Assembly (NCBI GenBank): GCA_020725175.1
Contig: DYFM01000010.1
Location: 1-54,832, forward strand
Reading direction: 5' to 3'
Length of the DNA stretch: 54,832 nt
From: Candidatus Paceibacter sp.
Lineage (GTDB): Bacteria; Patescibacteriota; Patescibacteriia; Magasanikbacterales; UBA922
Within the stretch, counting starts at the first letter, position 1. Each line of letters opens with the position of its first letter. Made by a program: the position numbers and the translations under genes. The notes under the pieces were generated by a model. The model worked only from the letters and a program-made list of their open reading frames with translations. It searched no databases and was not told the DNA's origin. Shown piece after piece: positions 712 to 16,817 of the stretch.

Positions 712-993
712 TCATTCAAAAATCACCACTTCCTCTTCCTCGTTGGCAGCATATCCATATCGCTTCACTTTTCCCTTACAACCTTCACATAATTGCATTA
801 TAAGGATACTATCACTGTTTGTAAAGTGGGGTTCATACACCATTTCAACCTCTGTCATGATATTTTTTAATACACGAGAGCTGTTTCTAATTTCAAAAAT
901 CGAGTACTGAATACGTCTACCAAACTTCTTTAAAAATTTAGAAAACTTCGTTCTTCGACGGTTACTCTCAATATCATAAGAAACAATGTACAT
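712..993 (-). CDS. cas2: CRISPR-associated endonuclease Cas2
   Basis: MYIVSYDI...RIQYSIFE Cas2 motifs; position after cas1. Confidence 0.97.
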   Translation of the reverse strand: MYIVSYDIESNRRRTKFSKFLKKFGRRIQYSIFEIRNSSRVLKNIMTEVEMVYEPHFTNSDSILIMQLCEGCKGKVKRYGYAANEEEEVVIFE

Positions 994-1000
994 ATTGAAT

Positions 1001-1951
1001 TTATTTCACATAAAAAAACGGAATCTCGTCAGTGTCATTCATAATGCAGTAGTAATAGTCCCGCACATAAGAAAACAATTCTTCTTTTCTATCCATAATC
1101 GCTTCTGAAAAAATTCGAATATACTTTTTTTGTTTGTCATACGAAAGACTGTACTTTCCCTTCAGACAGAGAAAATCTTTTTTATCTATTTGTTTAAGAT
1201 TGTATGACTTTACAATTTGTTTATCAATAATGCAGCGAAACGGCTCTACAATATCACATACAAGCGACTTTCTCTGGAAAAACAAGGTATGATAGACACC
1301 TTTATACGTATCAAATCCATAAAGGTTCAATAACGCATCGACAAAATTAAACAACATCGTATACCCAATGTCCATCAGAAGATTGTTAACGTCCACTTTT
1401 GCTCGTGGCAATCTCCGATACCAATTCATTTCTTTAAAATATTCTTGAAAGTACAATTTTGTCGCACTACCCTCGATTCCTAACAGTTCTTTTGATGTCA
1501 ATGTATTTTCCATCTTTTTCTCTATCTCTTTTTCAAACACACGTTTTGCCTCAATTGAAGTCGTATTCTTAAGAAGTATTTGTTGATTGACCAACTTATT
1601 TATTACAACTCTTTTAGCAATAGAAAAATCTCTAGAGGAAGCGTACTGTTTTTCTCGAAGTAAATAATTTCCTGATGCTGTAGATATAATTGACGCATAA
1701 GATAAAAAATTATCTTTTAGTAAAAACAGAGAAACCCCATATTGTTGACAATTTCTAATGAGTACGGTTGTGAGAGAAAAATCACCAACGATAAAAACGG
1801 CAAATACTTTATGACATGAGAGCTGATTGACAATATTCCCATCTTGAGTGAAACATATATTCTCATTCTTAAACTGAAGCCTGTTTTCCGCGGCATCTTT
1901 GGCTGCTATCACAAGCAATTGCTTCTCCTTGAAATCTGGTAATGACATCAT
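1001..1951 (-). CDS. cas1: CRISPR-associated integrase Cas1 (type V)
   Basis: LLGIEG, NLLMDIGY, GVYH, SLVCDIVEPFR motifs; start placed at the ATG overlapping the cas4 stop. Confidence 0.96.
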   Translation of the reverse strand: MMSLPDFKEKQLLVIAAKDAAENRLQFKNENICFTQDGNIVNQLSCHKVFAVFIVGDFSLTTVLIRNCQQYGVSLFLLKDNFLSYASIISTASGNYLLREKQYASSRDFSIAKRVVINKLVNQQILLKNTTSIEAKRVFEKEIEKKMENTLTSKELLGIEGSATKLYFQEYFKEMNWYRRLPRAKVDVNNLLMDIGYTMLFNFVDALLNLYGFDTYKGVYHTLFFQRKSLVCDIVEPFRCIIDKQIVKSYNLKQIDKKDFLCLKGKYSLSYDKQKKYIRIFSEAIMDRKEELFSYVRDYYYCIMNDTDEIPFFYVK

Positions 1952-2496
1952 AGAGGGTGACACAGTGGCTGATAAATACATTGTGCGCATTTTTTGCTAT
2001 CCGCCAAAATTTTGGCCTCAGCAACTGAAAAATTATTCACACGCTCTACAATATCAATAAACTTCTGCCATTCTTCTTCATTCGGCATGTCCAAAATGTA
2101 ACTTTTATTATCAGAGAGTGAATGGATTTTAAGCGTTTCTATCTCAAACCCCATTTCTCTCATACACGCCATTTGCGCATATAATTGATACTTATACCCA
2201 TCATAAATTTTAACAACTTTCCTTTTCCGTTCAATAAGTGTTTTAGTTTGAAGATCGTATATATCAATTTTCCCGCACAAACTAAGTTCGTCGGAATACA
2301 CTTCCTTGCCCATCAAATATCGTTTACGAGAAGAATATGCACCAGTATCAATACTTTCGTGTGCTATCGTTCCGGCAATTTGTGGAGTTCTTTGATAACT
2401 CTTTTTGTGAAAATTATCGTAGATAGTATGTAGATACACCGAACGAGGACAAAAAATAAAATCATTTATTTTTGAGATTTGGATGTAGGATTCCAT
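1948..2496 (-). CDS. cas4: CRISPR-associated exonuclease Cas4
   Basis: N-terminal FCPR, GKID...ERK, QLYAQ and C-terminal CxxCxxxxxC Fe-S ligands. Confidence 0.96.
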   Translation of the reverse strand: MESYIQISKINDFIFCPRSVYLHTIYDNFHKKSYQRTPQIAGTIAHESIDTGAYSSRKRYLMGKEVYSDELSLCGKIDIYDLQTKTLIERKRKVVKIYDGYKYQLYAQMACMREMGFEIETLKIHSLSDNKSYILDMPNEEEWQKFIDIVERVNNFSVAEAKILADSKKCAQCIYQPLCHPL

Positions 2497-2497
2497 G

Positions 2498-5400
2498 TTA
2501 TTGTTTTCGTTTTAAATTTTTTTCATTTTTCTTTATCCAATTTTCCCAAATCTCTCTACCCGCCAACCACGCACTCCATTCTTCATCAGATATAAACAAG
2601 CTCAAATCCCTTTTGATATGCTCACACATAATAATTCCTTTTCGTGCGATATTGTATGCACCATTAGCGTCACCAGAGGTTGGAAGATTTAAATTTATCT
2701 TTCTGGAATCAAAATGGTTTCCGTTTTTATCTCGTACGGGGGAAAGAATAAAGTCAGCGTCTTCTTCTGTTTTACCTGAATTTCTGATCTGCTGAATTAA
2801 ATCAATTACAAAACGCAGAGACTCCCATGAGGTGCGATCATTGATTTTATTTGGATTTTTTCCTTGTCTCAGTTGTTCAAGTAGTGATTTCTCTTTGTCA
2901 AAACCTTCAAATAAGCCATCAAGGATTTTCTTTAAATTTTGTTCTTTTGGAACCCATTTTTTATCACTGTTCTCATGCACCAATTCTCTGTAATATCTAT
3001 CTAAACTTTCTCCGTCTTTACCAGAATATAGTTCCCATGGTTTATTGGTATTTCTATCAGTATATTTAAAGTAGTAGTCTTTACCATCAAATTTAATATC
3101 GTCGAAGTTATCCAATATCTGTTTTTTAATACTTTCTTCAGAACCTTTTTTCAGATAGATAGTTTTTCTCCAGCCGGTAACAGGGTCTGTCTGTGACGTA
3201 TAATCAGCTTTAGTGTAAAACATAATCCCAAACTGCTTTTTACCCTCAATATCACCAAAATTATTTACGAGCGGAGTTAACTGCAAGGCAGAAGTTACCG
3301 AGCCAATTTCTCCTTCTTTAGCATGTTTATCAACAAGAAAATTTAACTTCTTTGCGAGAGCTAATTCAAGTTTTTGATATACTTGTTTTTCAATCTTTTG
3401 TCTACCACGCTTGAATCCGATATTCAAATCTTCCAAAACTATAAAGGCAGGAGTTTCTCTGAATACTTTCTTTTCAACATCCTCGTAAATAGCAAGATCA
3501 ACAATTTTTCGCACAACTTGAGAGATGTAGCCATCTTTCAATTCCTTTATGGTACCAATGGTTTTCCAGTTCTTTCGCGCCTCGTCACGATTTCCTGCCA
3601 TTTTCTCAAGTTTTTCAGCATAATTTTGTCCATTGATTTCATTGAAGCTGCCTTGATCTAAAGTTTCAATTTTTCCGTCTTTTGTTTGTTTGACAACAAA
3701 GTAGTACGCAAGATGTTTTTCACCGCGATCAATACCGATGGTAGTAATATCATCATTTAATTTAACCATGCTTTCATTGATTTCATCATTAAACTTTAAA
3801 GATCTCAAACAGAAATTTAAAGTTATAGGGCAATGAAAAACAAATTTTTCATTTGCGAAACGTTTATGCTCTAAAACTTCTTTGCCACTTTTGTCTTTTT
3901 TCTTCCCCAATTTTTCTTTCAATCTTATTTCGAACTCCTTATCTGTCTCATTTTCTTTTTTCTTTAAGATAGTTTTTCGATAAAAAATTTCAGCTTCACC
4001 ATTTAATTTCGGCTTATTAGCAACATCACCAAAAATTTCATTCCAATAAATAGTGTGTAAATTTTTTTCACTTGTTTTTTCTTTCCCTTCTTTTAAATTA
4101 TTATCTTTATTACGAATCTCAAAAAAGTATATTTCACCGTTTTCAACTGCCTCGTTAATTAATTTTTTACTAATAATATTCCATGAAAGTTTATACCCCT
4201 GTTTCTCAACTTCATTATAAAATTGATCAATACTCTCAAATTTTTCAGTTGGTGAAAAATTAAAGCCAAACAAATCCTGCCACGATTTTTCTGCTGATGG
4301 GTATACTTTTAGACCTTCTTTGTAGAAATCGATGATCTTCCACAGTTTTTCTTTTGTGAATGACGGTTGATTTTTCTTAAACCCACCTTCATCATAAATT
4401 GATAAGATATCGTCAGTCGCTCCAAATTCTTTGCGGTTACGCTTTGGTAACAAAACTTTTGGTAACATCTTATTCGGACCTGGTAAAAGTTTATAGTCCA
4501 TCTTTAAATAATTTTCATCTGTTACAACTTCTTTATATTTTGCCTTTTCGCCAAAAAGTTTTTGTGATGCTTTGGTTAAAATTGCTAAATACTTTTTCTC
4601 ACCATCTTTTAAAATTAAGCACCACCGTTCAGGCTCTTTATTTACATCCCAACCACCACCTAAGACAGAATTATCAAAATTCAACTTTAACTTATTTAGC
4701 CCTTCCTGAGGTCTTTTAGTTAAATAATTTCGAATAATGTCGTAAAACTTTGTTGGATTATTATCGCCAAACAAAATCGCTTTCAAACTTTCCGCCAATA
4801 TTGGATCAACCGCAAATTTGTCTTTTACTTTCCAGTACTTCACAATTTGATTTACATATAAAGCACTATCCAAAAGCATCTTAATATTTTCTATATGTTC
4901 AGGTTTTTTAAAATCTGTCGTTATGGATAAAACCTTTGGTGACAGCTCACTAAAATCTTTTGCCATTTTCTCCACATCAGCAAAAATCATCCCAAGCAAT
5001 GCCTTGCTAGGTTTTTCAGCTCGTTCAATTATTCCTTTCTTGTTACCCTCACCATCAAAAAGCGATGTCTTAAAAAGTCCATCTTCCTTATTTTTCCATT
5101 TTTCTGTTTTATCTAAAATTTCAAACAAATTTTTCAGCTCTACGGCTTGAGGAATTTTAATATCCTCATCGTCTTTTTTCTTCCCGCCAAACACACCACC
5201 TTCTTTAAGGGCTTTTTTCAAGATAAACCAATTTGCAAAATACTTTCCTGAAATTGTATTCAATGCTTTGTCACTCCAAAAAATGCCCTCAAAACTTTCG
5301 TGGTTTATAATATAGTGGACAAACTCACCTACTGTATCAACTTTGTCTTCAATCTTTCCATCAAATTGTCCAAAATATTTTTCACCATTTTCTACAACAT

Positions 5401-6541
5401 TTTTCAAAACAGCTCTCAACCCATCATCATTTTTAATTGCTGGGATAAAATCACCCTTTTCACCACATCCAATTTGCTTGTAGAGAGTTTTAAAAATTCT
5501 CAACTTTTTGTTTTTTTCACTTTGCTGTTGATTGTACCTATTAATTAAATTATTCGCATTACCAATATTTAAATTGTACTTTTCAATTTCTCTTTGTGAT
5601 AAACAATTTGTAAAATAACCAATTTCAAAAATATCTGCAATAATTTTTTCCAATTCAACTTTCTCACCTTTTTGATTTTTTCCAATTGTTTCAATTCCGT
5701 TTTCTTTTAAAAAATCATATACTTTTAAATATTCATCTTTTCTTTTCTGAAATTCCAAAACATTGTCCGCAAATTTTGGCAAATTTTCATCGATAATTCG
5801 TGAAGCAACCGCTGTGGCTTTCTCTTCCGTTGAATAGTAATTTTCCCGATTTTGATTAAAACCGGTTAGATACGTAAAAAAGCCCTCAAACACCCCCTTT
5901 GAATCAGCGGTTCCTAAAGCTTTCTCTAAGTCTTCTTTTTTTACTTCTTTGCCTTCGTGGGTTTTTAAATTCATCACCACAAACTCCTCAATTTTTGCTT
6001 TAACGTATTTCAAAATTCCAACTTCCGTAAGAATCTTAAAACTGTCTTCTTTTAAAATAGGTTTGCCTTTTTTGTCGCTCCCGACTTTGCTCTTAAACTT
6101 TTCTCCTTCTGCCTTATAAATATCAGAAAACGCAGCCCGCAAATTTTTTTCTTTCGTTTCTAATGATTTTTCTATCTTTTTCTTCTCTTCCCTATCTTGC
6201 TCATTTCTTAAGTTTTTATAAACAGAAAAGTAATCCTCAAAAGAGAGGTGTTTTGCTTCATCACTCTCCAAACTTTCAGTAATAAACTCCTCATGTAATT
6301 TATCAAATACCGGCTTTAATATTTGATAGGCGTCTTCAATTTCTTTATCACGAATAAAGTTAGGATTTGCTTTTTCGATATTCTCGCGAGTCTTCCCAAC
6401 CGGTCTCAACTCAAACCGCAAGGTCTTCGATAATGCATACTTCCTCGTAAACTGATCAAAAACTGATTTGTTACTAAGCACCTCGGCTTGTTTTTTTTCA
6501 GTAGACACAGAAACAATAGATGATGACATATCGATATGCAT
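2498..6541 (-). CDS. cas12a: Type V-A effector Cas12a (Cpf1)
   Basis: LSKTLRFELRP N-terminus, GWDVNKE, PGPNKMLPKV, intact RuvC motifs IGIDRGE / VLEDLN / DANGAYNIARKG; 1347 aa; exact start uncertain. Confidence 0.98.
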   Translation of the reverse strand: MHIDMSSSIVSVSTEKKQAEVLSNKSVFDQFTRKYALSKTLRFELRPVGKTRENIEKANPNFIRDKEIEDAYQILKPVFDKLHEEFITESLESDEAKHLSFEDYFSVYKNLRNEQDREEKKKIEKSLETKEKNLRAAFSDIYKAEGEKFKSKVGSDKKGKPILKEDSFKILTEVGILKYVKAKIEEFVVMNLKTHEGKEVKKEDLEKALGTADSKGVFEGFFTYLTGFNQNRENYYSTEEKATAVASRIIDENLPKFADNVLEFQKRKDEYLKVYDFLKENGIETIGKNQKGEKVELEKIIADIFEIGYFTNCLSQREIEKYNLNIGNANNLINRYNQQQSEKNKKLRIFKTLYKQIGCGEKGDFIPAIKNDDGLRAVLKNVVENGEKYFGQFDGKIEDKVDTVGEFVHYIINHESFEGIFWSDKALNTISGKYFANWFILKKALKEGGVFGGKKKDDEDIKIPQAVELKNLFEILDKTEKWKNKEDGLFKTSLFDGEGNKKGIIERAEKPSKALLGMIFADVEKMAKDFSELSPKVLSITTDFKKPEHIENIKMLLDSALYVNQIVKYWKVKDKFAVDPILAESLKAILFGDNNPTKFYDIIRNYLTKRPQEGLNKLKLNFDNSVLGGGWDVNKEPERWCLILKDGEKKYLAILTKASQKLFGEKAKYKEVVTDENYLKMDYKLLPGPNKMLPKVLLPKRNRKEFGATDDILSIYDEGGFKKNQPSFTKEKLWKIIDFYKEGLKVYPSAEKSWQDLFGFNFSPTEKFESIDQFYNEVEKQGYKLSWNIISKKLINEAVENGEIYFFEIRNKDNNLKEGKEKTSEKNLHTIYWNEIFGDVANKPKLNGEAEIFYRKTILKKKENETDKEFEIRLKEKLGKKKDKSGKEVLEHKRFANEKFVFHCPITLNFCLRSLKFNDEINESMVKLNDDITTIGIDRGEKHLAYYFVVKQTKDGKIETLDQGSFNEINGQNYAEKLEKMAGNRDEARKNWKTIGTIKELKDGYISQVVRKIVDLAIYEDVEKKVFRETPAFIVLEDLNIGFKRGRQKIEKQVYQKLELALAKKLNFLVDKHAKEGEIGSVTSALQLTPLVNNFGDIEGKKQFGIMFYTKADYTSQTDPVTGWRKTIYLKKGSEESIKKQILDNFDDIKFDGKDYYFKYTDRNTNKPWELYSGKDGESLDRYYRELVHENSDKKWVPKEQNLKKILDGLFEGFDKEKSLLEQLRQGKNPNKINDRTSWESLRFVIDLIQQIRNSGKTEEDADFILSPVRDKNGNHFDSRKINLNLPTSGDANGAYNIARKGIIMCEHIKRDLSLFISDEEWSAWLAGREIWENWIKKNEKNLKRKQ

Positions 6542-7235: not shown

Positions 7236-7264
7236 TTGACACAAAAGAATGATTGTGCTATAGT
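7236..7264 (+). promoter_or_regulatory. Sigma70 promoter with extended -10
   Basis: TTGACA-N17-TATAGT with TG upstream of the -10. Confidence 0.75.
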
Positions 7265-7280
7265 ACCTTTGCCTCTATTA

Positions 7281-7310
7281 TCCGCCGAAGCTCCAAAGAG
7301 TGAAGGTGGA
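7281..7310. repeat. REP-like short palindrome
   Basis: TCCGCCGAAGCTC...GAGTGAAGGTGGA imperfect hairpin. Confidence 0.5.
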
Positions 7311-7389
7311 AAAACCATCCTCAAAAAATTCATACCCGTCCGAGCAGCGGTGCAGCTGTTTGGTGATTGTTCATATCCTTCGTAAAAGG

Positions 7390-7466
7390 TAGTGGAATGA
7401 CGAACGCCAGTTCGTCAAAGAATAGAACACCTACCTTGTGGCGAACTGACGTTCGTCACTCCACTA
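7390..7466. repeat. REPIN-like inverted doublet
   Basis: About 28-nt arms (TAGTGGAATGACGAACGCCAGTTCGTCA and its near reverse complement, 3 differences), each with an internal palindrome. Confidence 0.8.
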
Positions 7467-7475
7467 ACACAAAAA

Positions 7476-7575
7476 CATTCGCATAATTCGCATCATTCCC
7501 CGCCCAAGGCGGGTCCGCCTTGGGCGGAGCATGTTCGTAGTTCGTATGTTCGTACTTACTGTTCGTACGTTCGAA
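7476..7575. repeat. Degenerate (A/G)TTCGYA short tandem run with a nested 30-nt double hairpin (7499-7528)
   Basis: ATTCGCAT/GTTCGTA units interrupted by CCCGCCCAAGGCGGG-TCCGCCTTGGGCGGA. Confidence 0.75.
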
Positions 7576-7595
7576 CATAATTTGCCTTCTAACCC

Positions 7596-8393
7596 ATGAA
7601 CAACTCTCTCCTCCCCCTGAAGGAATTTCTGTTATCTCTCGATCTGCCGGAAAAAGAAGTCAATGTCTATCTGGTACTCTTGACTATGGGAAAGGGAACC
7701 GTATCAGAAATCACTCGCCAAGCCGGACTCAATCGTACTACGGGCTATGATATCTTGAACAAACTGATCGACTACGGCCTGGTGAGTATTTCCGGCAAAG
7801 AACCAAAGCAGGAATATGTCGCCGAATCACCCGACAACATTATCAAACTACTTGAGGAACGAAAAAAACGCACACAAGTACTTCTCAAACAAGCCAAACA
7901 AAAACTTCCGGAATTGAAATCAATTCACAATGTGAGTGATCGCCCAAGAGTTCGATTTTATGAAGGAAAACAAGGACTAGAAGATGTATATGAAGACACG
8001 CTGACTGCCAAAGAAACCATTCGCGCCTACGCCACGGTAGACGACATGCACGCCGCGCTCCCGGATTATTTTCCAAAATACTATCAACGCCGCGCCAAAA
8101 AACACATCAACATTCGAGCTATTATTCCTAGCACCGACATTGGTCAAGAGCGAGCCAGCAAAGACAAAGAAGAAGCCCGAGAGACAGCCCTCATACCACC
8201 AGACAAATATTATTTCTCCCCCGAAATAAACATCTATGACAACAAAGTCATGATTGCCTCCTGGCGAGAAAAACTCGGGATCATTATTGAAAGCGCCGAA
8301 ATTGCTGATGCCATGAAGAAGATTTACGAGCTGGCCTGGGCGGAGGCGAAACGACTTGACGAAATACAACGAAATGACGAAACGTCGAAATAG
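7596..8393 (+). CDS. TrmB-family transcriptional regulator
   Basis: N-terminal wHTH (EVNVYL...RTTGYDILNKLIDYGLV), VRFYEGKQGL, C-terminal EINIYDNKV...IIIES. Confidence 0.88.
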   Translation: MNNSLLPLKEFLLSLDLPEKEVNVYLVLLTMGKGTVSEITRQAGLNRTTGYDILNKLIDYGLVSISGKEPKQEYVAESPDNIIKLLEERKKRTQVLLKQAKQKLPELKSIHNVSDRPRVRFYEGKQGLEDVYEDTLTAKETIRAYATVDDMHAALPDYFPKYYQRRAKKHINIRAIIPSTDIGQERASKDKEEARETALIPPDKYYFSPEINIYDNKVMIASWREKLGIIIESAEIADAMKKIYELAWAEAKRLDEIQRNDETSK

Positions 8394-8477
8394 AGAAATA
8401 ACGAAATAGGGAAATAGCTCCGCCCCCACTCTAGGTGGGCAGGCAAGGCGGACTCGTCTGGGTCGATGAAATAATGA
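8387..8477 (+). repeat. Dispersed ~90-nt composite element, copy 1
   Basis: GAAATA octamer run enclosing a GC-rich palindrome; near-identical reverse-complement copy at 34040-34125. Confidence 0.85.
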
Positions 8478-8488
8478 AGTACGTGTGT

Positions 8489-8591
8489 CAGATAACAGAT
8501 AGCAAATAGCAGATATCAGTATTGATTGTAGTTTGACCAAGAAGAGTATATATCTGTTATCTGTTATCTGTTATCTGTTATCTGTTATCTG
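8489..8591. repeat. Mirror heptamer array
   Basis: (CAGATAA)-like x4 at 8489-8515 facing (TATCTGT)x5 plus a partial unit at 8551-8591. Confidence 0.9.
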
Positions 8592-8709
8592 AAATTGGTT
8601 AGATATTAGAAATTAGATGAATTAGAAATTACCCCGCCTCCATCTTTTCTCCCCAGAGAAACTGTGGTACAATACCCCCATTCTTACGCTTAATGAACGA
8701 CCACTTGTT

Positions 8710-11328
8710 ATGTCCCGACCAAGACAATCACGCCGTCAAGCTGCTAGTACCTTTGACCCTACCCTCTCTCACGGCATTCTCGCCATCATTCTCATTATCA
8801 GCGCCATCATCATTGGACTCAGTTTTTTTGAAAAAGCTGGAACTATTGGTATTATTCTCAATGAGTATGTGCTCAGTTTTCTATTTGGTTCAATTCGCTT
8901 TGTCACACCAATTATTCTCTTGGTTTCAGCGTGGTATCTTATTACAGATCGAGAATTTTCCTATCGACCGGTGCATCTGATAGGCGCTGGTCTTTTTTTC
9001 CTTTCTCTCTCAAGTCTTCTCCATATCAGTTTTCCACTGGAATCCATGTGGACAGAATCACTTGAAGGAAATGGAGGCGGCGTATTTGGTATGCTCGCTT
9101 GGCCGGTAAAAACATATCTTGGAAGCATTGCCGGCGTCATTGTCCTTATGGGTACTGCCATGGTCTCTGTCATGCTCATGTTCCACACCACACTCGATGC
9201 TTTTATTCATCTTCAGCGCAGCTTTCTAGAACTTCTCGCTACTATTCCACACCGCATCTGGACCGGCATGAAAAGTGCCTTTGTAAAAGAACCGACCCAA
9301 AAACAATTTTCCTATCCGGAAGATGAATACGACGACGAAGAGGAAGAAGAGACCGCAGAAACACCGGCTCGACATTTCTTTAGTAAAAAACTGGGCGAGA
9401 AAATCAAAAAACAACAAAAAGAGCGAGAAGAAGAGATGGAAGACGAAGATGAATCAGAAGAAGACATTGAAGAAGAGGTGGAAGCACCGGTGCGTCGCGC
9501 TCCGGCTCGCGCGGAAAAAACCGAATCAGCTGAAGAAGAAAAATCCGGTGCACTAGAAACTCCGGCATGGCTTCAACATGTATTGATTAAACCAATCCCT
9601 TCTGTAGCACTTCTCAATAATAAAAAAGGGAAACCATCTAGTGGGGACATCAAAACCAATGCCGAGATTATTCAAAATACGTTCAAAGAGTTTAATATTG
9701 ACGTCGCCATGGAAGATGTGCGAGTAGGCCCAACCGTAACCCAATATTCACTCAAGCCGGCAAGTGGAGTAAAATTGTCACGTATTACCAGCCTCTCAAA
9801 CGATCTGGCTCTCGCACTTGCGGCTCACCCCATTCGGATTGAAGCGCCAATTCCCGGAAAATCACTGGTCGGTATTGAAGTACCAAATGAAAAAACCGCC
9901 ATGGTTTCCTTTCGAGAATTGTTGGAAAGTCAAGAATTCATTGCTCGCCCGCACAACATGATGATCGCGCTCGGAAAAGACGTGGCCGGAAAAACTTGGT
10001 TTGCGGATTTACCTCGCATGCCACACCTTTTGATTGCCGGAGCTACCGGATCCGGAAAAACTGTCTGTGTCAATACGCTGATCATGTCGCTCTTATACCA
10101 AAACACTGCTGAAACACTCCGCATGATTATGGTTGATCCAAAACGAGTAGAGTTAACCTTATATAATGGCATTCCACATCTCCTGACGCCGGTTATTACC
10201 AACACTCAACAAACAGTAAACGCTCTCAAATGGGCAATCGGTGAAATGGAACGTCGCTTTGAACTTCTTTCCCAAGCCGGCAATCGCGATATTACCAGTT
10301 TCAACAAACACGCCAATCCAAAACTCCCGCACATTGTCTTTATCATTGATGAATTGGCTGATCTCATGGCTACCGCTCCGGGAGACGTGGAAGCCGGCAT
10401 TATTCGTCTCGCTCAAATGGCACGCGCAGTGGGCATCCACTTGATCTTGGCAACACAACGCCCGAGTGTTGATGTTATTACCGGTCTCATGAAAGCCAAC
10501 ATTCCGGGTCGTATTGCCTTTTCAGTAGCATCACTCACCGACTCTCGAACGATTCTTGATACCGGCGGCGCGGAAAAACTACTGGGGCGAGGTGATATGT
10601 TGCTGTCTACTGCAGAATTATCCAAACCGGTGCGTATTCAAGGCGCGTACATTTCCGAAGAAGAAATGAAGCGTGTCGTGCAAGAATTGACCGGCGGAGA
10701 GAAACCGGTCTACGATGATTCTATTGTAGCAAAACCTTCGGCCGGCGGTACCATGAATATGTTTGGTGGACCCACAGACGATCAAGATCCATTGTTTGAA
10801 GATGCAAAAAATCTCATTGTTGAACAAGGTAAAGCGAGCGCGTCATTTTTACAACGTCGGTTCAAAGTTGGATATGCTCGAGCAGCACGCATTCTTGATG
10901 AACTCGAAGAAGCCGGTATCATTGGCCCGGCCGACGGCGCAAAGCCGCGAGAAATTCTGGTCACGGAACGAGAGATTGAAGAAACCATGGATATGGGCGG
11001 AGAACTCAATGTCTACAAACAACCTCGCAAAACTGAAGAGGCACCTGACGTATTTGAAGACGAGGAAGCATATGAGAGTGAAGAAGAAAACGAAGATGAA
11101 GAAGACATCAGTAAAAATTTGGAAGATACCACTGATAGTGAATTACCCAATAACGATACTCCAGAAATGGATGACGATTCTTATACCAAAGATGAAGATG
11201 AGACACTTGAACATGATGAACCGATAGATGAAGACAACGAAGAAGATGAAGACACCTATTCAAATAAAAGGTCAAACAAACCACCCCAAAAACCCGAAGA
11301 GACCATAAAAAACTCCTTTTGGCACTAA
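8710..11328 (+). CDS. ftsK: DNA translocase FtsK/SpoIIIE
   Basis: N-terminal TM helices, PHLLIAGATGSGKT Walker A, IIDELADLM, ATQRPS, gamma domain SFLQRRFKVGYARAARI. Confidence 0.97.
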   Translation: MSRPRQSRRQAASTFDPTLSHGILAIILIISAIIIGLSFFEKAGTIGIILNEYVLSFLFGSIRFVTPIILLVSAWYLITDREFSYRPVHLIGAGLFFLSLSSLLHISFPLESMWTESLEGNGGGVFGMLAWPVKTYLGSIAGVIVLMGTAMVSVMLMFHTTLDAFIHLQRSFLELLATIPHRIWTGMKSAFVKEPTQKQFSYPEDEYDDEEEEETAETPARHFFSKKLGEKIKKQQKEREEEMEDEDESEEDIEEEVEAPVRRAPARAEKTESAEEEKSGALETPAWLQHVLIKPIPSVALLNNKKGKPSSGDIKTNAEIIQNTFKEFNIDVAMEDVRVGPTVTQYSLKPASGVKLSRITSLSNDLALALAAHPIRIEAPIPGKSLVGIEVPNEKTAMVSFRELLESQEFIARPHNMMIALGKDVAGKTWFADLPRMPHLLIAGATGSGKTVCVNTLIMSLLYQNTAETLRMIMVDPKRVELTLYNGIPHLLTPVITNTQQTVNALKWAIGEMERRFELLSQAGNRDITSFNKHANPKLPHIVFIIDELADLMATAPGDVEAGIIRLAQMARAVGIHLILATQRPSVDVITGLMKANIPGRIAFSVASLTDSRTILDTGGAEKLLGRGDMLLSTAELSKPVRIQGAYISEEEMKRVVQELTGGEKPVYDDSIVAKPSAGGTMNMFGGPTDDQDPLFEDAKNLIVEQGKASASFLQRRFKVGYARAARILDELEEAGIIGPADGAKPREILVTEREIEETMDMGGELNVYKQPRKTEEAPDVFEDEEAYESEEENEDEEDISKNLEDTTDSELPNNDTPEMDDDSYTKDEDETLEHDEPIDEDNEEDEDTYSNKRSNKPPQKPEETIKNSFWH

Positions 11329-11390
11329 CAAAAAATTGTACAAAAGCAGTCACAACAATCTTGTTATAATTTTTCCTCTCAGGAGTATAT

Positions 11391-11418
11391 GTGATGTAGT
11401 GATGTAGTGATGTAGTGA
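11391..11418. repeat. Octamer tandem repeat (GTGATGTA)x3.5
   Basis: Direct reading. Confidence 0.85.
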
Positions 11419-11476
11419 CAAAATTGTCTTTTTCCTCAAAATTCGCTATACTATTCAGCAAGAAAACTTTTTTCCT

Positions 11477-12190
11477 ATGGACAAATTTACCATCAAAAAA
11501 ATCAGCGAAGGAAAACGTGTTTGTTTGCGACTCAAAGAAACCCGTGAGCAAGCCGGTGTGTCACTCAAAGACCTTGCCAAAAAAACCGCTATCAAAGAAT
11601 CATATCTCGAAGCCTTGGAAAACTGTCAATTTGAAAAACTTCCCGGAAGTGCCGTATACCACAAAGGATTTATTGTTCGGTACCTGAAAGGATTACGAAT
11701 AGACCCAACTCCATTTGTCCAACAATATTGTTTGGAAGAAGATACCGCCTCTCCCCCATGTCAACAACCATTGATAGTAAAAAGAAATTATTTTCACAAT
11801 CTCCCTCTTCTTATTCGCACCGCCAGCATTGCCACGATTATTATCGCACTTCTCGGCTATCTCGTATTACAAGTACGACAAATTCTTGAGCCACCGGCCC
11901 TCACACTCTACAACCCAACCAATGGGGAAATTACCCAAGAAAAACAACTTGATATTCACGGAAAAACAGACAAAGAAGTGATGGTCATGATCAATGGCAA
12001 AGAAATTTTCAACAACCAAGAAGGTATATTTACAGAAACGATTGATCTTAAGCCAGGAGTCAACACCATTACTGTTTCTGCCAAGCGTCGTCATGGGAAA
12101 GAAGCACAAGAAACTCGCTATGTCACGTTCCGCGAGCCGGCACCACAACTTTCCCTAAGTAACGACCCTGCCACAGCTCGAGCAAACTAA
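11477..12190 (+). CDS. RodZ-like HTH membrane protein with C-terminal Ig-like domain
   Basis: LKETRE...YLEALE...LPGSAVYHKGFIVRY HTH, one TM helix; ftsK-HTH-recA synteny. Confidence 0.8.
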   Translation: MDKFTIKKISEGKRVCLRLKETREQAGVSLKDLAKKTAIKESYLEALENCQFEKLPGSAVYHKGFIVRYLKGLRIDPTPFVQQYCLEEDTASPPCQQPLIVKRNYFHNLPLLIRTASIATIIIALLGYLVLQVRQILEPPALTLYNPTNGEITQEKQLDIHGKTDKEVMVMINGKEIFNNQEGIFTETIDLKPGVNTITVSAKRRHGKEAQETRYVTFREPAPQLSLSNDPATARAN

Positions 12191-12379
12191 CAAAATACAT
12201 ACCCCAAAACACTGCGTCGCAATCCGTAGTGTTTTTATTTCAAACTCTATACTGTTTTCACAGTAAGACATGATATGTCTGTTTCAGAAGTAGAACATTT
12301 GTTCTCTCTTATCCACATATCGACAAAAAATAACTACAAAAATAGCTTTATTGAAATAAAAAAAATGATCCGAAAATCC

Positions 12380-12408
12380 TTGACACCACGACAAAAAACC
12401 AGTATCCT
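12380..12408 (+). promoter_or_regulatory. recA promoter
   Basis: TTGACA-N17-TATCCT. Confidence 0.7.
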
Positions 12409-12451
12409 AAGAGTACTACATAATTCAAACGCACTCATAACATCATAATCT

Positions 12452-13528
12452 ATGGCCAAAAAACAAACCGAGGAGCAACAAGGAAAACTTCGCGCGACCC
12501 AAACTGCTATTGACCAAATCAAACAAAAATTTGGTGACAATTCCATCATGAAATTTGGTGAGGCACGCACTTCAGATGTTGACGCTGTACCGACCGGCTC
12601 CATTTCTCTTGATATCGCGCTCGGTGTTGGTGGGATGCCTCGAGGACGCATCATTGAAGTATTTGGACCAGAAGCCAGTGGTAAAACGACGCTTGCTCAA
12701 CACATCATTGCCGAAGTCCAAAAACAGGGTGGTATTGCCGCCTTTATCGATGCTGAACACGCCCTTGATCCGGACTACGCTCGAAAAATTGGTGTTGATG
12801 TTGACAATTTGTTTATTTCTCAACCAGATACCGGGGAACAAGCACTTGAAATTCTTGAAACGTTGGTTCGTTCCAATGGAGTTGACGTAGTGGTAGTAGA
12901 CTCGGTAGCAGCGTTAGTGCCAAAGGCAGAAATCGAAGGTGAAATGGGAGACTCCCACATGGGGCTCCAAGCTCGACTCATGAGTCAAGCGCTCCGTAAG
13001 CTCACCGGTATAGTAAGTAAAACCCATACCGTCGTTATTTTCATCAACCAGATCCGACAAAAAATTGGTGTCTTCTTTGGAAATCCCGAAACCACTACCG
13101 GTGGAAACGCACTCAAATTTTATTGTTCTGTCCGCGTAGAAGTCCGCCGTTCTGCTCAGATTAAACAAGGAGAAAAAATTATCGGCAATCGCGTAAAAGT
13201 AAAAGTGGTCAAAAACAAAGTGGCGGCTCCATTTCGTACCACTGAATTTGATATCATGTACAATGAAGGTATCTCACTCGCTGGCGATCTTCTCGATACG
13301 GGAGTTGCACATAAAGTCATTGCCAAGTCCGGCAACAGTTACAGCTTTGGTGAAGAAAAATTGGGGGTAGGTCGCGAAAAAGTAAAAGAATATTTGAAGA
13401 GCGATCCAAAACTCATGAAAAAAATTGAAGAAAAAATTTGGGAAGTAGTAGAACGTGGAGAAGCACCGGAAGAAGAAAAAGCAAAACCAGGTGAGGCGAT
13501 GGCGATGGAGGAAGAAGTGGGGGTGTAG
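12452..13528 (+). CDS. recA: Recombinase RecA
   Basis: [36 protein letters not shown]. Confidence 0.99.
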
Positions 13529-13549
13529 GAAAACAGAGACTATTAATAG

Positions 13550-13580
13550 CAAAACAGACGGTTTTCAACCGTCTGTTTTG
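13550..13580. terminator. Bidirectional intrinsic terminator
   Basis: CAAAACAGACGGTT/AACCGTCTGTTTTG 14-bp stem between convergent genes. Confidence 0.85.
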
Positions 13581-13679
13581 TTATCTATACACATACTATA
13601 GAGACACCTCATATTTTTATACAAGTACAATTTATTTGAGAGTAAAGTCGTACAATGAACCCTGTCATGAGTTTTTAAC

Positions 13680-14375
13680 TTAATGCAATCTATTTTTATA
13701 CATTTGTAACCCTCTTTCCGATAAACGTCTTTGGTGAATCTCATTGTACAAGCGAAATACATCTTTCTCAATTTTGATAGTATCAACCATAGTTGATAAA
13801 AGCTCTTTTATTTGTTCGGTTAATGTAGCTGCCACTACCATACCTGCTTGATGTTCCTTTACGCCTATTTCATCTTGATCAGAGTTTGGTGTATTTACAA
13901 GGTTTCTGAAGACACGACTATCAGCGGAGGGAAGTTTTGATAAAAATTCATGAAAGGAAACAGGCTGTGAAGCATCTGTTTCAAGACCAAAGGACAGGTG
14001 CTGTATTCTTCTTAGAGCTCCGAAAGTGAAGACCTCTTCAACACCAATTTGATTAAGTAATTCGACCATTTTCTGATCACTCTCTTTAAGGAACTGATTG
14101 TATTTTCTATAAAAAAAATTCTCTTTCTCCCTACGCGTTGTTTCATCTAGCTCATCTAATGATGATTCTTCAGCATAAGTTTTCAAGAATGTTTCAAGAG
14201 CCTCTTCATACGGATCTGGAAATGTCGGAATTGTATCTTTATCAATTTTTATTACAGGTTCGTTGAAACCATTTTCATCTTTCCTCTTCATGATATATGA
14301 ATGGAACAAAATACGAACCAACCTTTTACCTTCATCCGATAACTTCTCGAATGTATTATATGACAAACCATTCAT
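13680..14375 (-). CDS. Hypothetical protein
   Basis: Long AT-rich ORF, no recognised motif; start set at MNGLSY. Confidence 0.6.
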   Translation of the reverse strand: MNGLSYNTFEKLSDEGKRLVRILFHSYIMKRKDENGFNEPVIKIDKDTIPTFPDPYEEALETFLKTYAEESSLDELDETTRREKENFFYRKYNQFLKESDQKMVELLNQIGVEEVFTFGALRRIQHLSFGLETDASQPVSFHEFLSKLPSADSRVFRNLVNTPNSDQDEIGVKEHQAGMVVAATLTEQIKELLSTMVDTIKIEKDVFRLYNEIHQRRLSERGLQMYKNRLH

Positions 14376-14462
14376 ACGAAAAAGTTTATATGTATGTATA
14401 GATATACATAATAACATAAAAAGGTTTAGTGCCTGGTCTCTGTACTTTCTGGTAATCGTTTT

Positions 14463-14855
14463 AGTAATTCAAATATGCCTCATTTACTATAGTTTCTGTT
14501 CGAATATTTGGATAAAACCAATTGACAGTTTTGATATATTCTTTAATTTTCTGAGTAATAATATCAAATGATAAATAATTTAGATTGGCTAACATATAAT
14601 TTCTAACTCCAGCCAAAAAACTTTTTCTGCATTTCGTTCTAACTCATCACACATCTGGTTATCTATTTCATGTTGATTCTCTTCAGTCCCATGCAAAAAT
14701 CTATCTTTTATCCCCACTTCAGTTGCGGTATCGCTTATGCGATTACTAAAAATTATTGTTTTATACAAACAAGAAGTTTCACTTGCCCATAAAAACAAAG
14801 TTCTCAAAATCTGTTTCTCATTTTCACTTAAACGTTGAAAAGCACTGTACTCCAT
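14463..14855 (-). pseudogene. Probable frameshifted paralog of the 13680-14375 gene
   Basis: N-terminus YSAFQRLSENEKQILRTLF resembles YNTFEKLSDEGKRLVRILF; another frame gives ITQKIKEYIKT, resembling LTEQIKELLST. Confidence 0.5.
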
Positions 14856-14870
14856 ATAAGTAGCAAAATG

Positions 14871-16817
14871 TTAGTACACCCTCTCAATCCCAACCCCCGT
14901 ATAATAATACTTCAAAATCTCCTCCCACGTCGCCTTGCCCTCAACCGCTCGAATAATCGCATCACGATTACTCATTCCCACGCCATGACCCCAGAGTTTC
15001 TTTCCATCTCGTTTATCATAGGTAGCTTCCACTGACACCAGCCACGGCTTGTCTTTTCCACCCCACACCTCGCTCCATGACCGAGTTCTCCCATCGGTAT
15101 TGGAGAAATATGGCGTAATTACAATTTCCGACGGAGTAGATGGATTGTTATCCGTATCATAGGTAATCATCATACCACGAGTATCATTGGCGGCTTTACG
15201 AATATTCGGCATGGCAATCTCAGCGTTGTATCCCAAAAACAACTGATCGGCGGTACTAGGTACCACATCAAACGATCCGTACTTACACGCGCAACTCTTC
15301 AGATAATACGCATAGGTCCGCGCGGCAATAAGAAGTGCTTTTTGATACTCCGGATGGGTATCATTACCTGTTTCGGCGATCCCTGCAACATAATCTTCAA
15401 ACAACGTTTCATTGATCACCCAAAACTGTTTATCTTTTTTACCAAATTGAAGGATAACATTGCCGCGGTATTTGTTGTAGTTGGTGTTTTTCTTCCAAGA
15501 AACAGTTCGAGAAAAATTTTTCAGCTCAAACACTGCGCTAGGATTGGAAGAAGGAACAAGCCGAACAATACCTTGCAACGTGAATTTCTTTTCAGCATAC
15601 GACACAACAATAACGCCGTTGGTATGTGATATTGTTGCCGTTATATTTTTTGGAATACGGCCAACTTCTGTTTCATCATCAAAAATAATATAGTCATCTT
15701 CCGGAGTCCAAAATTCAACTGTTTTCGGTGCTTCCCACAAGCCGATTTTAATCGTTGGCTCCGTAGAAAGTCGTAGCTCAGTTTCATTTGGCTGAAAAAC
15801 TACTGGTTTTTTCTTAGATATTGATTCTAAATTCTGAGAAACAGTAATTGGGATTTCCACCATAGCTCCGGCGACTGAGATACCGTCAGCTTCTAGCTGT
15901 AACTTCAATACATAGTGACCCTCTTCAGTCGGCATGGTGAGAAAAAACGTGTTTTCCGCTAAAAACTTTGGCGCGATATTCTTTATCACTTTTTTTGTTG
16001 ATTGAGAATCAGTCCAATCGCCATCTGAAAAGGAGATGGTTTCATTTCCAACAGTGGTAGCTCGTAGAAAAAACGAAGACCATGCTGCCGTGCCAATATT
16101 TCTAAAATGCGCGCGAACCTTTACTTTTTCACCCGGCCTCGCGACGATTTCTTTTTTTGAAACTATCGCTCGTTCTCCGAGATAGGTACCGGTTTTTTTC
16201 AAGGCATTCTCCGAAGCGGTCGGTGTAATAGCAGCCGAAGGAGCATTACCAGAAGATGTTGCGGGCACCACCTTTATATCCAGATAAAAATATCCTCCGT
16301 GAATCCAAGTATGGTTGTACGCAGCCAAATAAAACTGCTCTTTATACACTCCAGGCTTTCCGGCCCTCAATTCGACCGGTAATTCAGCTGTTTCACCTGG
16401 TTGCACTGCTTTTACAATCGATGCAGTTTGGTCTTTCCCTTTCCAGCTAGCTCCTCGAAATTCTGACGTCCGATACTTTGGTTCTATGGTAAACGCGGAA
16501 ACATACCGTGTACCACCTGCATTCCACGTTGTTGATCCGGTGTTTTTAAACTTGAGCACCACTGTTTTTGTTTCCCCCTCAGTAAGCACAATCGGATCCG
16601 GAAGAGACTGCCCGACATAACGCGCACTATACGCTTCATCCCGAATAGTCATGACCGGAACATTCGCTGCCTGAACTGAGTTGAAACTACCAACTGATAA
16701 AAAAATACCGACGGTTACGAAAGTAAAACCGAGAAATATACGAAACAAAAAGGAATTTTTTGATATCATAGAAAGAATCTTATTATGCGAGCAGTATACC
16801 ATTTTTTTATCTTTCAC
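14871..16817 (-). CDS. SpoIID/LytB-domain secreted protein with Ig-like N-terminal domains
   Basis: EDYVAGIAE, KALLIAARTYA, DQLFLGY, GHGVGMS...ILKYYYTG; start may be 16766. Confidence 0.9.
   Translation of the reverse strand: MKDKKMVYCSHNKILSMISKNSFLFRIFLGFTFVTVGIFLSVGSFNSVQAANVPVMTIRDEAYSARYVGQSLPDPIVLTEGETKTVVLKFKNTGSTTWNAGGTRYVSAFTIEPKYRTSEFRGASWKGKDQTASIVKAVQPGETAELPVELRAGKPGVYKEQFYLAAYNHTWIHGGYFYLDIKVVPATSSGNAPSAAITPTASENALKKTGTYLGERAIVSKKEIVARPGEKVKVRAHFRNIGTAAWSSFFLRATTVGNETISFSDGDWTDSQSTKKVIKNIAPKFLAENTFFLTMPTEEGHYVLKLQLEADGISVAGAMVEIPITVSQNLESISKKKPVVFQPNETELRLSTEPTIKIGLWEAPKTVEFWTPEDDYIIFDDETEVGRIPKNITATISHTNGVIVVSYAEKKFTLQGIVRLVPSSNPSAVFELKNFSRTVSWKKNTNYNKYRGNVILQFGKKDKQFWVINETLFEDYVAGIAETGNDTHPEYQKALLIAARTYAYYLKSCACKYGSFDVVPSTADQLFLGYNAEIAMPNIRKAANDTRGMMITYDTDNNPSTPSEIVITPYFSNTDGRTRSWSEVWGGKDKPWLVSVEATYDKRDGKKLWGHGVGMSNRDAIIRAVEGKATWEEILKYYYTGVGIERVY

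Follow-up and report, generated by a model that had tools for sequence, protein, structure and literature searches.

Short tandem word arrays at gene junctions of a Candidatus Paceibacter genome and their relation to hairpin cassettes with small genes

The 54,832-nt contig DYFM01000010.1 of assembly GCA_020725175.1, assigned to Candidatus Paceibacter sp. (family UBA922, order Magasanikbacterales, Patescibacteriota), carries tandem arrays of short words at its gene boundaries, some of which face their own reverse complement across a short loop. This whole stretch, hereafter the window, is contig C20 of a 33-contig genome of 1.24 Mb with an estimated completeness of 98%. On balance, we lean towards regarding the arrays as parts of gene-less palindromic hairpin cassettes similar to the intervening sequences (IVSs) of rRNA genes, either as arms or as the one arm that survives; these gene-less members of the cassette family would be either non-autonomous or landing pads. 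A full cassette holds one small gene in its loop, encoding either a four-helix-bundle (4HB) protein of the 23S rRNA IVS type (PF05635) or a GxxExxY nuclease of the PD-(D/E)xK type (TIGR04256/PF13366).

Tandem arrays, mirrored pairs and dispersed hairpins

The region from the TrmB-like gene to the ftsK leader (7477-8631) contained the following features, called with Tandem Repeats Finder (TRF) or read from the sequence:

7477-7573, composite immediately upstream of the TrmB-like gene: (ATTCGCATA) x2.4, followed by a GC-rich hairpin (7499-7530) and (GTTCGTA) x5.7 (TRF, sequence)
8366-8416, plus strand, array of (ACGAAATA) x6 (TRF, sequence)
8417-8465, GC-rich element of 49 nt, nested within the CGAAATA array, which has a degenerate continuation at 8466-8481
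8489-8519, left arm of the main hairpin, degenerate (CAGATAA/G) x4.4 (TRF)
8520-8550, loop of the main hairpin (sequence)
8551-8591, right arm of the main hairpin, perfect copies of (TATCTGT) x5.9, pairing with the left arm
8599-8631, third array, unmirrored, (TTAGAAA) x4.4, before the ftsK leader (TRF)

The main hairpin (8488-8592) has arms of 31–32 nt (8488-8519 and 8561-8592) that are 88% complementary. Predicted folding energies are -45.4 kcal/mol (z -7.5) for RNA and -17.9 kcal/mol (z -5.2) for DNA. The element is 83.5% identical over 97 nt to positions 86402-86494 of contig C29, and its loop is related, by eye, to the loops of the CAGATAA hairpins at C1 8025, C27 13160, and C29 86430. 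An intrinsic terminator and a promoter were considered for this hairpin and rejected: a G+C-rich stem followed by a T run was missing, and the single weak promoter-like site matches the average of 1.0 in shuffled sequences. The TTGACC motif of the loop has, by eye, no properly spaced -10 hexamer. No terminator-like site was found in 8300-8760; the stems are rich in A+T, and 8591 is not followed by a T run.

The TrmB-like gene (7596-8393) ends within the array at 8366-8416, which supplies its final residues and its stop codon (8391-8393, within the CGAAATAG words). The CGAAATA word of this array represents the largest word family of the genome (CGAAATAA), with 48 arrays on 20 contigs. The 49-nt GC-rich core had 20 matches in the genome, and at least nine copies, counted by eye and including the one at 34053-34101, are nested in the same register within CGAAATAA arrays. 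Therefore, the word arrays are themselves targets or carriers of a second, smaller element.

Strain variation was followed in Logan contigs of runs X6–X9, a few hundred bases long, with each variant taken from single contigs at a depth of 3–6. Extra units in the 8551-8591 arm were present in contigs of X7 and X9, and one extra 8-letter unit at 25380-25411 in an X6 contig. In an X7 contig, 27 letters of GAAAT-type words replaced positions 8360-8467, comprising the array and its nested G+C-rich core. Several other strain joints, such as 8416 to 19639 and 28016 to 19127, connect two repeat copies and were set aside as uninformative.

Such arrays are far too frequent for chance. Genome-wide, TRF returned 1260 rows, among which periods 7, 8, and 9 stood out sharply (215, 254, and 223 rows), and three dinucleotide-preserving shuffles gave 228–236 rows in total. 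At periods 7–9 and a score of ≥40, the genome contained 266 rows versus 0, 0, and 1 in the three shuffles. The size of the arrays is narrow, with medians of 3.9 copies and 32 nt.

Placement was evaluated against genes called crudely as the longest non-overlapping open reading frames (ORFs) of ≥70 aa, which yielded 1147 genes covering 87.3% of the genome. Of 299 arrays with periods 6–13 and a score of ≥40, 161 were intergenic, 37 lay across a gene end, and 101 were genic; intergenic DNA accounted for 64.9% of the 11,307 array bases versus 12.7% of the genome. Co-directional junctions were the densest (172 arrays in 97,994 nt, 1.76 per kb), followed by convergent (20 in 20,543 nt, 0.97 per kb) and divergent ones (26 in 28,540 nt, 0.91 per kb). 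The upstream stop codon was overlapped or lay within 5 nt of the array start in 43 of the 172 co-directional arrays (26 overlaps), against 25.4 ± 4.1 expected under uniform placement (maximum 39 in 2000 trials), a 1.7-fold excess. Only 20 of the 172 abutted the downstream start, the calls of which are uncertain.

An original prediction, made from the letters of the window alone, had placed arrays of 7–13 nt units at nine sites, and all nine hold them according to TRF and sequence. Its five stop-codon contacts (8391-8393, 25410, 28748, 35787, and 37865) proved correct, and the array at 45707-45735 does belong to the same word family as that at 8489, with period 7 and ACAAATA/ACAGATA words. The prediction also spoke of a system that targets gene junctions. 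The bias to junctions is real, but selection against insertions into genes would give an equal bias, and active targeting does not follow from it.

Mirror symmetry was scored for 344 arrays (period 6–13, score ≥36, ≥2.5 copies). A reverse complement of two units within 150 nt and with ≤15% mismatch was present for 72 of them, with control values of 7 (complement), 3 (reverse), and 15 (direct). By local alignment (Smith-Waterman score ≥32, within 250 nt), 81 arrays were mirrored, and the controls gave 7, 12, and 4. Thus, about a quarter of the arrays are mirrored, roughly tenfold over controls, and the predicted mirror enrichment is borne out. The statement that many of the named arrays are mirrored holds for four of the nine places (8489, 27320, 35788, and 47020); the arrays at the other five are single. 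Three composite palindromes that had not been listed (19027, 24847, and 27970) extend the mirrored set of the window. A strict scan found 46 mirrored pairs, 38 with gaps of 1–172 nt and no ORF and 8 with gaps of 446–975 nt. Hairpin loops span 5–184 nt, with a median of about 27 nt.

Grouping the 344 arrays by word gave 103 families; 62 consisted of a single array, and the 18 largest together comprised 220 arrays. Whole hairpins are repeated as well. The composite palindrome, about 125–135 nt long and built of CAAGATA and TTGGAAAT words, matched more than 15 genome loci when a 125-nt copy was used as the BLAST query. The alignment of 12 copies showed defined inverted ends and unrelated flanks. 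Among 64 non-redundant hairpins, 25 have a copy elsewhere that covers at least 70% of the length, loop included. Since whole copies are dispersed and none of them exceeds 89.8% identity, these hairpins are old dispersed repeat families. No matching insertion sequence was identified for them.

The RNA hairpins into which the arrays were said to fold out are predicted structures, and selection on an RNA stem is not visible in the pattern of mismatches. In 37 hairpins located in co-directional junctions, 1013 Watson-Crick pairs and 77 other mismatches were counted, and G-U-compatible mismatches numbered 30 on the transcribed strand versus 33 on the other. A selected RNA stem should favour the transcribed strand, and this flat ratio does not, so that the symmetry looks DNA-level or neutral. 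Cleavage of transcribed stems by RNase III, the gene of which is present in the genome, is plausible by analogy.

Small genes between arms of the same words

At E ≤ 0.01, the genome encoded nine PF05635 proteins (4HB, 23S_rRNA_IVP), six TIGR04256 proteins (GxxExxY; PF13366 PD-(D/E)xK), and four PF04480 (DUF559) proteins. None of the three families had a match on the window contig at this threshold, in agreement with the earlier remark that no 4HB gene is present here. Inspection by eye showed mirrored word arrays around eight of the nine 4HB genes and all six GxxExxY genes; the four DUF559 genes lie between G+C-rich inverted repeats. One of the eight wide pairs of the strict scan contains no ORF; the others flank 4HB genes (three pairs), GxxExxY genes (two), a DUF559 gene (one), and a YbaK-type editing gene (one). 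Elsewhere in the genome, six word families of the window form the arms of 4HB or GxxExxY genes:

CGAAATA, window 8366, 25379, and 34030: arms of a 4HB gene on C8
TGGAAAT/AATTTCCA, the three palindromes of the window: arms of a 4HB gene on C1
AGTTGGCA, window 40664: arms of a 4HB cassette on C25
ACTCAG, window 27316-27414: arms of a 4HB cassette on C4, formed by the akin CTGAGT words
GTTCGTA/TACGAAC, window 7531 (within 7477-7573) and 25042: arms of GxxExxY cassettes on C29 and C31
TGCGAATGATGCAAAT, window 47015 (47015-47110): arms of a GxxExxY cassette on C30

No cargo was found in this genome between arms of the main word, CAGATAA. One candidate, C24:29884-30436, was rejected; it contains an ordinary YbaK-type tRNA-editing gene, and the polarity of its arrays, (TGTTATC)n followed by (CAGATAA)n, is opposite to that of the hairpins. 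We read this pair as two separate junction arrays.

Five PF01797 (Y1) matches were found in the genome at E ≤ 0.01. One Y1 gene of IS200/RAYT type (C21 2897-3337, PF01797 E 3.9e-37), which has G+C-rich end hairpins of its own, lies between an (ACAAGAT) x3.6 array and TTGGAAATTGTAACTTGTTTCTT words, that is, between arms like those of the composite palindromes of the window. The other Y1 genes are flanked by G+C-rich hairpins, and word-array arms are present in only one of the five cases (C21). Judging by this case, unrelated selfish genes of small size seem able to enter hairpin loops, a point in favour of the landing-pad variant. The original prediction had described the arrays as empty or non-autonomous remnants of a mobile system; non-autonomous elements or landing pads fit better than decayed remnants, the loops being short and the window contig free of cargo debris at E ≤ 0.01.

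Related genomes were examined for the same arrangement. Among 19 other genera of the family, 4HB genes were present in 10 genomes and GxxExxY genes in 6. Of 45 non-own 4HB matches, 26 loci were examined, one of which was too near a contig end to be scored; of 20 non-own GxxExxY matches, 18 were used, after removal of a 40-residue fragment and of a match at the start of a contig. Flanking inverted repeats (score ≥28) were found at 20 of 25 4HB loci (controls 3/25 and 4/25) and at all 18 GxxExxY loci (controls 0/18 and 1/18). For 4HB proteins at least 50% identical to each other (25 pairs), arm similarity was 0.335 versus 0.187 for the rest, a difference reached in none of 5000 permutations, and in 14 of the 16 closest pairs, the outer flanks were at background similarity. 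Close 4HB relatives thus have related arms in different genomic contexts, and at short evolutionary distances the arms accompany the gene.

Array density (period 7–9, score ≥40) was determined in fixed blocks of 21 genomes. The second sample was drawn from the order by cargo count before the arrays were counted.

Sample 1, no cargo genes: G009, 1 array in 100 kb; G002, 0 in 40 kb; G001, 3 in 40 kb; G018, 1 in 40 kb; G016, 0 in 40 kb; G017, 0 in 40 kb
Sample 1, with cargo genes: G014 (1 gene), 0 arrays in 100 kb; G012 (14 genes), 33 in 200 kb; G013 (8 genes), 11 in 100 kb; G015 (7 genes), 3 in 40 kb; G007 (15 genes), 2 in 20 kb
Sample 2, no cargo genes: G038, 1 array in 40 kb; G057, G036, G043, and G049, 0 in 40 kb each
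Sample 2, with cargo genes: G053 (5 genes), 3 arrays in 40 kb; G050 (5 genes), 3 in 40 kb; G054 (6 genes), 3 in 40 kb; G044 (2 genes), 6 in 40 kb; G030 (1 gene), 2 in 40 kb

Pooled, the 11 genomes without 4HB or GxxExxY genes contained 6 arrays in 500 kb, and the 10 genomes with them 66 in 660 kb; the genome studied here has 260 arrays in 1239 kb. The contrast was seen within two families (f1 and f4). G+C content does not explain it, because the cargo-free genomes at 0.34–0.37 are array-poor and the cargo-bearing ones at 0.40–0.43 array-rich. This genome-level tie of arrays to 4HB and GxxExxY genes fits the earlier proposal of a single system.

The nusG-rplK junction was compared in 11 of the 30 relatives matched:

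G003, G009, and G002: 61–66 nt, no arrays
G001, G013, and G014: 99–113 nt, no arrays
G010: a single (TTTTTAAT) array
G008: an ordinary perfect hairpin
G012 and G007: mirrored gene-less (AAAGGCTNN) arrays
G011: a 4HB gene between mirrored arrays
This genome: a composite palindrome directly behind the nusG stop

Empty, gene-less-array and 4HB-cassette states of one orthologous junction were therefore all found in the comparison that the original prediction had proposed. The three observations on whose absence it could have failed, namely positional bias, mirror enrichment, and cargo-bearing relatives, were all made. Also present in this junction (window 27898-27975), here and in all 11 relatives, is a small hairpin whose GAGAAGC(G) motif is conserved; it has no Rfam match at the gathering score and probably represents the native leader or attenuator of rplK. 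It lies outside the element in this genome and within the arms in G011; hence, the arms tend to be located at the very edges of the spacer.

The main word is widespread. The exact 21-mer (CAGATAA)x3 occurred in at least 123 stretches of a species-genome collection, with hosts, among the matches listed, from Bacteroidota, Bacillota, Cyanobacteria, Acidobacteriota, several phyla of the Candidate Phyla Radiation (CPR), Gammaproteobacteria, and others. Small ORFs within 150 nt of CAGATAA arrays belonged to PF05635 in 2 of 70 cases, and the rest were ordinary genes. In an uncultured gammaproteobacterium (L195), the PF05635 gene lies exactly between (CAGATAA)n and (TTATCTG)n, and in a member of Bacteroidales (L175), it adjoins a CAGATAA array. 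The 4HB protein of L175 is closest to that of L195, although not reciprocally and with only these two cases. CAGATAA is thus common to several phyla and able to form 4HB arms, and most of its copies are single and gene-less. Together with the six word families of this genome, this finding agrees with the expectation that the repeat units flank 4HB or GxxExxY genes elsewhere.

Competing explanations

The proposed mechanism can be outlined as follows. Each arm is a tandem run of a 7–9 nt word from a limited vocabulary, and the full cassettes have the architecture of ORF-bearing rRNA IVSs, placed between protein genes. Gene-less copies may derive from such cassettes as non-autonomous elements or serve as landing pads. 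Spread or exchange would take place at the DNA level through shared arms, by recombination or gene conversion, perhaps aided by the nuclease. The arrays could then lengthen or shorten by replication slippage, after which a stem built of repeats would still pair. They would persist mainly at gene junctions, often giving the upstream gene its last codons and stop. In operon transcripts, they would form stems of 25–35 bp that RNase III might cut as in rRNA IVSs. The copies in this genome are probably mostly neutral passengers.

Several observations weigh against this explanation. About three quarters of the arrays are single. The highest identity between hairpin copies is 89.8%, so nothing shows recent movement, and no target-site duplication was evident in the 12-copy alignment, where it was not scored systematically. 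Covariation across eight copies of the composite palindrome was slight: most positions are invariant, and compensatory changes occurred in 3 of 26 pairs, once each (term +0.59); the mismatch counts of 30 and 33 were likewise flat. No cargo debris was detected in the hairpin loops of the window at E ≤ 0.01, one 4HB gene (on C6) has no clear arms, and the 23S rRNA gene (C24:35150-37797) has no TRF array in or beside it. Across 34 4HB cassettes, protein and arm similarity were weakly rank-correlated overall (rho 0.11, a value reached in 158 of 2000 permutations), and the signal was confined to the close pairs. Of the 80 CAGATAA loci with sequence, 72 are single, 8 have a reverse-complement partner within 1 kb, and 78 have no 4HB gene within 150 nt. 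The genomes pooled for array density are related and not independent samples, and the blocks are small; the gene-based figures rest on the crude ORF set.

Alternatively, each word of an array could be bound by one subunit of an oligomeric regulator that recognises DNA or RNA, for which the 4HB proteins are candidates. The arrays would then be multivalent sites of transcriptional or post-transcriptional control, with mirror pairs as two-sided operators instead of mobile DNA. The narrow array size (medians of 3.9 copies and 32 nt), the limited vocabulary, the words that close 4HB relatives have in common, and the presence of arrays only where cargo genes occur would suit such a function. Nevertheless, we consider it unlikely: the neighbouring genes are housekeeping genes of all kinds with no common function, stops are contacted more often than starts (43 versus 20 of 172), orthologous junctions of sister genera have different words or none, whole hairpins with conserved loops are dispersed as repeats, and at least 103 word families would have to be matched with nine 4HB genes. 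Less likely still are elements of the type of repetitive extragenic palindromic (REP) sequences and their doublets (REPINs), mobilized by endogenous Y1 (HUH) transposases of the REP-associated tyrosine transposase (RAYT) or IS200 kind, with the 4HB and GxxExxY genes as passengers in the loops. Recognition of single-stranded DNA hairpins would account for the strand-symmetric mismatches, and the five PF01797 matches (E ≤ 0.01), the C21 Y1 gene (2897-3337) within palindrome-like arms, and the GC-rich hairpins flanking the other Y1 genes point in this direction. However, word-array arms occur at only one of the five Y1 genes, and no Y1 gene was found at E ≤ 1e-5 in 7 of the 10 cargo-bearing relatives (G012, G013, G014, G015, G030, G044, and G050). 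Six of these seven carry 5–16.5 arrays per 100 kb, so the Y1 enzyme is not the general driver; the arrays track 4HB and GxxExxY genes instead.

Host-serving RNA elements, acting as operon processing sites, stabilizers or terminators that tune the expression of neighbours, would explain the higher density in co-directional junctions (1.76 per kb versus 0.91 in divergent and 0.97 in convergent ones), and both the very stable predicted stem (-45.4 kcal/mol, z -7.5) and the encoded RNase III are compatible with them. We hold this explanation to be very improbable, as no terminator-like site is present in 8300-8760, convergent junctions are not enriched, the wobble pairs show no preference for the transcribed strand, the nusG-rplK junction is array-free in 6 of 11 relatives, and the same operons lack arrays in sister genomes. 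The lowest probability is assigned to plain microsatellite-like slippage in non-coding DNA with a coincidental link to the small genes. Slippage is indicated by the perfect runs at 8551-8591 beside the degenerate ones at 8489-8519, by strain-level differences in copy number, and by the prevalence of single arrays. As the only process, it is disfavoured by the recurrence of the same words at many sites and in other phyla, the roughly tenfold mirror enrichment, the conserved loops and dispersal of whole elements, and the near absence of arrays from related genomes of similar G+C content that lack the cargo genes.

Beyond the hairpin-cassette explanation for this genome, a much broader proposal can be entertained tentatively. 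The short tandem repeats described in other bacteria, the rRNA IVSs, and the 4HB and GxxExxY genes might constitute one pan-bacterial class of selfish hairpin cassettes (including the STRR, TAACTGA and Geobacter arrays discussed below), in which each 4HB or nuclease lineage recognises its own word by a word-to-protein code, and the arrays of the window would be landing pads or footprints of spread between junctions and genomes. We regard this generalization as doubtful.

Other features of the window and known repeat systems

The remaining arrays of the window were as follows:

11391-11418, single (GTGATGTA) x3.5, period 8, perfect copies, between ftsK and an HTH gene (TRF)
19027-19163, composite palindrome, copy 1 (CAAGAAA/TGGAAAT words), inside the open Wzy_C-type ORF 18413-19846
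24847-24980, composite palindrome, copy 2, upstream of the thrS start
25042-25062, single (GTTCGTAC) x2.5 (TRF, sequence)
25379-25413, minus strand, (TTATTTCG) x3.9, read as CGAAATAA on the gene strand; the stop 25410-25412 of the gene 25410-26339 falls within it (TRF, sequence)
27316-27414, mirrored 9-mer arrays (AGTTGACTN / CAGATAACT) between mdh/ldh and rplK; arms 27316-27351 and 27374-27409, 81% complementary
27970-28105, composite palindrome, copy 3, directly after the nusG stop in the nusG-rplK junction
28718-28750, fragments of TTGGAAA/TTGGAAAT words abutting the stop 28748-28750 of a 59-aa SecE-like ORF (28748-28927, minus strand)
34030-34125, (TTATTTCG) words, the GC-rich core in reverse (34053-34101) and (TTATTTCC/TTATCTCC) words, upstream of ftsW
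35788-35892, degenerate mirrored period-8 arrays (TTTATTGN / CAATAAAC) that begin directly after the stop 35785-35787 and fill the junction before rplY (L25); arms 35809-35828 and 35871-35890, 75–80% complementary
37856-37916, plus strand, 13-mer array (CAAGGCGGATAAA) x4.7 overlapping the stop 37865-37867; by eye, it resembles part of the GC-rich element (CAAGGCGGA motif) in amplified form
39577-39616, (GCAGAGTAA) x4.1, period 9, upstream of gatB, with at most a weak partial partner; of the 19 arrays that this word family forms genome-wide, 12 are mirrored
40664-40795, two adjoining single period-8 arrays, (AGTTAGCA) x8.6 and (TAACAATA) x7.2
45703-45735, single (ACAAATA/ACAGATA) x4.7, period 7, in the short spacer from a dCMP deaminase gene to a kinase gene
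47015-47110, mirrored (TGCGAATGATGCAAAT / ATTTGCAT..CATTCGC) words upstream of rplA; arms 47043-47067 and 47080-47104, 88% complementary

No inverted partner was found for the arrays at 11391, 37856, 39577, 40664, and 45703. The Wzy_C (O-antigen ligase-type) ORF that contains the first palindrome is continuous and encodes 477 aa, with the Wzy_C domain at residues 251–387, just after the repeat; the palindrome could have been inserted in frame, or crude gene calling could have joined two genes into one ORF.

The window otherwise contains housekeeping genes (ftsK, recA, thrS, mdh/ldh, rplK, nusG, secE, gyrB, ftsW, rplY, gatB, tmk, folA, thyA, rplA). Searches of the whole window revealed no Rfam family at the gathering score and no tRNA genes. 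The left end (15-6541) is occupied by a type V-A CRISPR-Cas locus. Its array (15-551; 62-nt period, 8.6 units) has a repeat that ends in what we take to be a Cas12a-type stem and is followed by ORFs of 93, 329, and 182 aa, probably cas2, cas1, and cas4. Cas12a (1347 aa; RuvC_1, REC1, Cpf1 PI-like, and NUC domains) is the last gene of the locus. At the right end, a low-G+C island (47676-54832; 0.28–0.29 versus about 0.41) starts with a 602-aa fusion of RadC-JAB and a D12 N6-adenine methyltransferase, followed by three large ORFs of 605, 256, and 791 aa. It is probably acquired DNA and perhaps a restriction or defence island. At 21962-22961, where G+C locally reaches 0.53 (block 22001-24000), long ORFs of 304 aa (plus strand) and 256 aa (minus strand) overlap; the 304-aa ORF has no Pfam match. 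Long non-coding segments that are not word arrays and have no Rfam match were found at 7236-7476, 25063-25378, 33730-34030, and 47130-47675. The first two look structured and may contain unannotated small RNAs; a promoter-like TTGACA-17-TATAGT lies near 7236.

Several known repeat systems share properties with the arrays. GxxExxY genes occur in rRNA IVSs, and a long inverted-repeat stem with a small PF05635 gene in the loop is common to rRNA IVSs and the cassettes, which include 8 of 9 PF05635 genes of this genome, by eye, and 20 of 25 in relatives; RNase III is encoded here as well. The elements of the window differ in lying between or inside protein genes, none of them in rRNA, and in having arms made of tandem word arrays. 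For CPR rRNA, a published account reports 23S_rRNA_IVP ORFs together with many short ORF-less insertions at known IVS sites (PMC11270868), which the gene-less short forms of the window parallel. Classes 1–3 of Geobacter metallireducens, designated as "putative global regulator binding sites," consist of 3–5 tandem repeats of 7–9 nt, mostly as opposite-strand pairs at variable distance and in tens of copies (PMC2700814; Aklujkar 2009). Their anatomy is that of the mirrored arrays described here, in which reverse-complement partners (81 of 344), variable distances, and many copies were all found. They were interpreted as regulator sites, and neither "four-helix" nor "S23" occurs in the main text of that paper.

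TAACTGA repeats of Beggiatoaceae, Cyanobacteria, and Bacteroidetes, for which regulator binding was proposed, form 169 direct-repeat sets and one inverted set, according to the abstract, and lie just upstream of start codons (PMC4679880; MacGregor 2015). The arrays of this genome, too, are short tandem 7–9 nt intergenic repeats. TAACTGA resembles them in its short, mostly intergenic heptamer runs, in the occurrence of one word across distant phyla, as with CAGATAA, and in the overlap of some runs with the upstream stop, because the word itself holds stop codons. Here, in contrast, a quarter of the arrays are mirrored, and the bias is to stops rather than starts. The terms "four helix" and "intervening sequence" are absent from the TAACTGA paper. 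We found no literature linking such arrays to 4HB or GxxExxY genes (for Aklujkar 2009, within the main text), and papers naming GxxExxY did not deal with repeats, judging by titles and the beginnings of abstracts.

Similar intergenic short repeats are the short tandemly repeated repetitive (STRR) sequences and long simple-sequence repeats. REP/REPIN-RAYT systems and miniature inverted-repeat transposable elements (MITEs) likewise comprise many gene-less palindromic copies, a few gene-bearing ones with the same arms, defined ends, and unrelated flanks. The elements studied here differ in that their usual cargo is no known transposase class and their arms are internally repetitive; moreover, Y1 is missing from most array-rich relatives, unlike in REP/REPIN systems, and no target-site duplication of the MITE kind was evident in the 12-copy alignment, which was inspected without systematic scoring. 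In Rickettsia palindromic elements, a palindromic repeat can sit in frame within a protein gene, as the copy at 19027-19163 may do in the Wzy-type ORF, although this is the only such case in the window.

To our knowledge, the heptamer and octamer arrays of cyanobacteria, Beggiatoaceae, Bacteroidetes, and Geobacter have remained for decades without an accepted origin, and the 4HB "23S rRNA IVS" and GxxExxY genes belong to the most frequent small genes in bacterial annotation that still lack an explanation. The arrays are tied to these genes by shared arm words, by the joint travel of gene and arms, and by the near absence of arrays from genomes without the genes. For annotation, the hairpin-cassette explanation would account for swollen junctions, repeat-encoded C-terminal tails, and in-frame palindromic inserts in CPR genomes. 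If true, it would provide a testable origin for the whole repeat class and candidate pairs of proteins and nucleic-acid words for biochemistry, and would add a new type of mobile or exchangeable module within the operons of even the smallest genomes.

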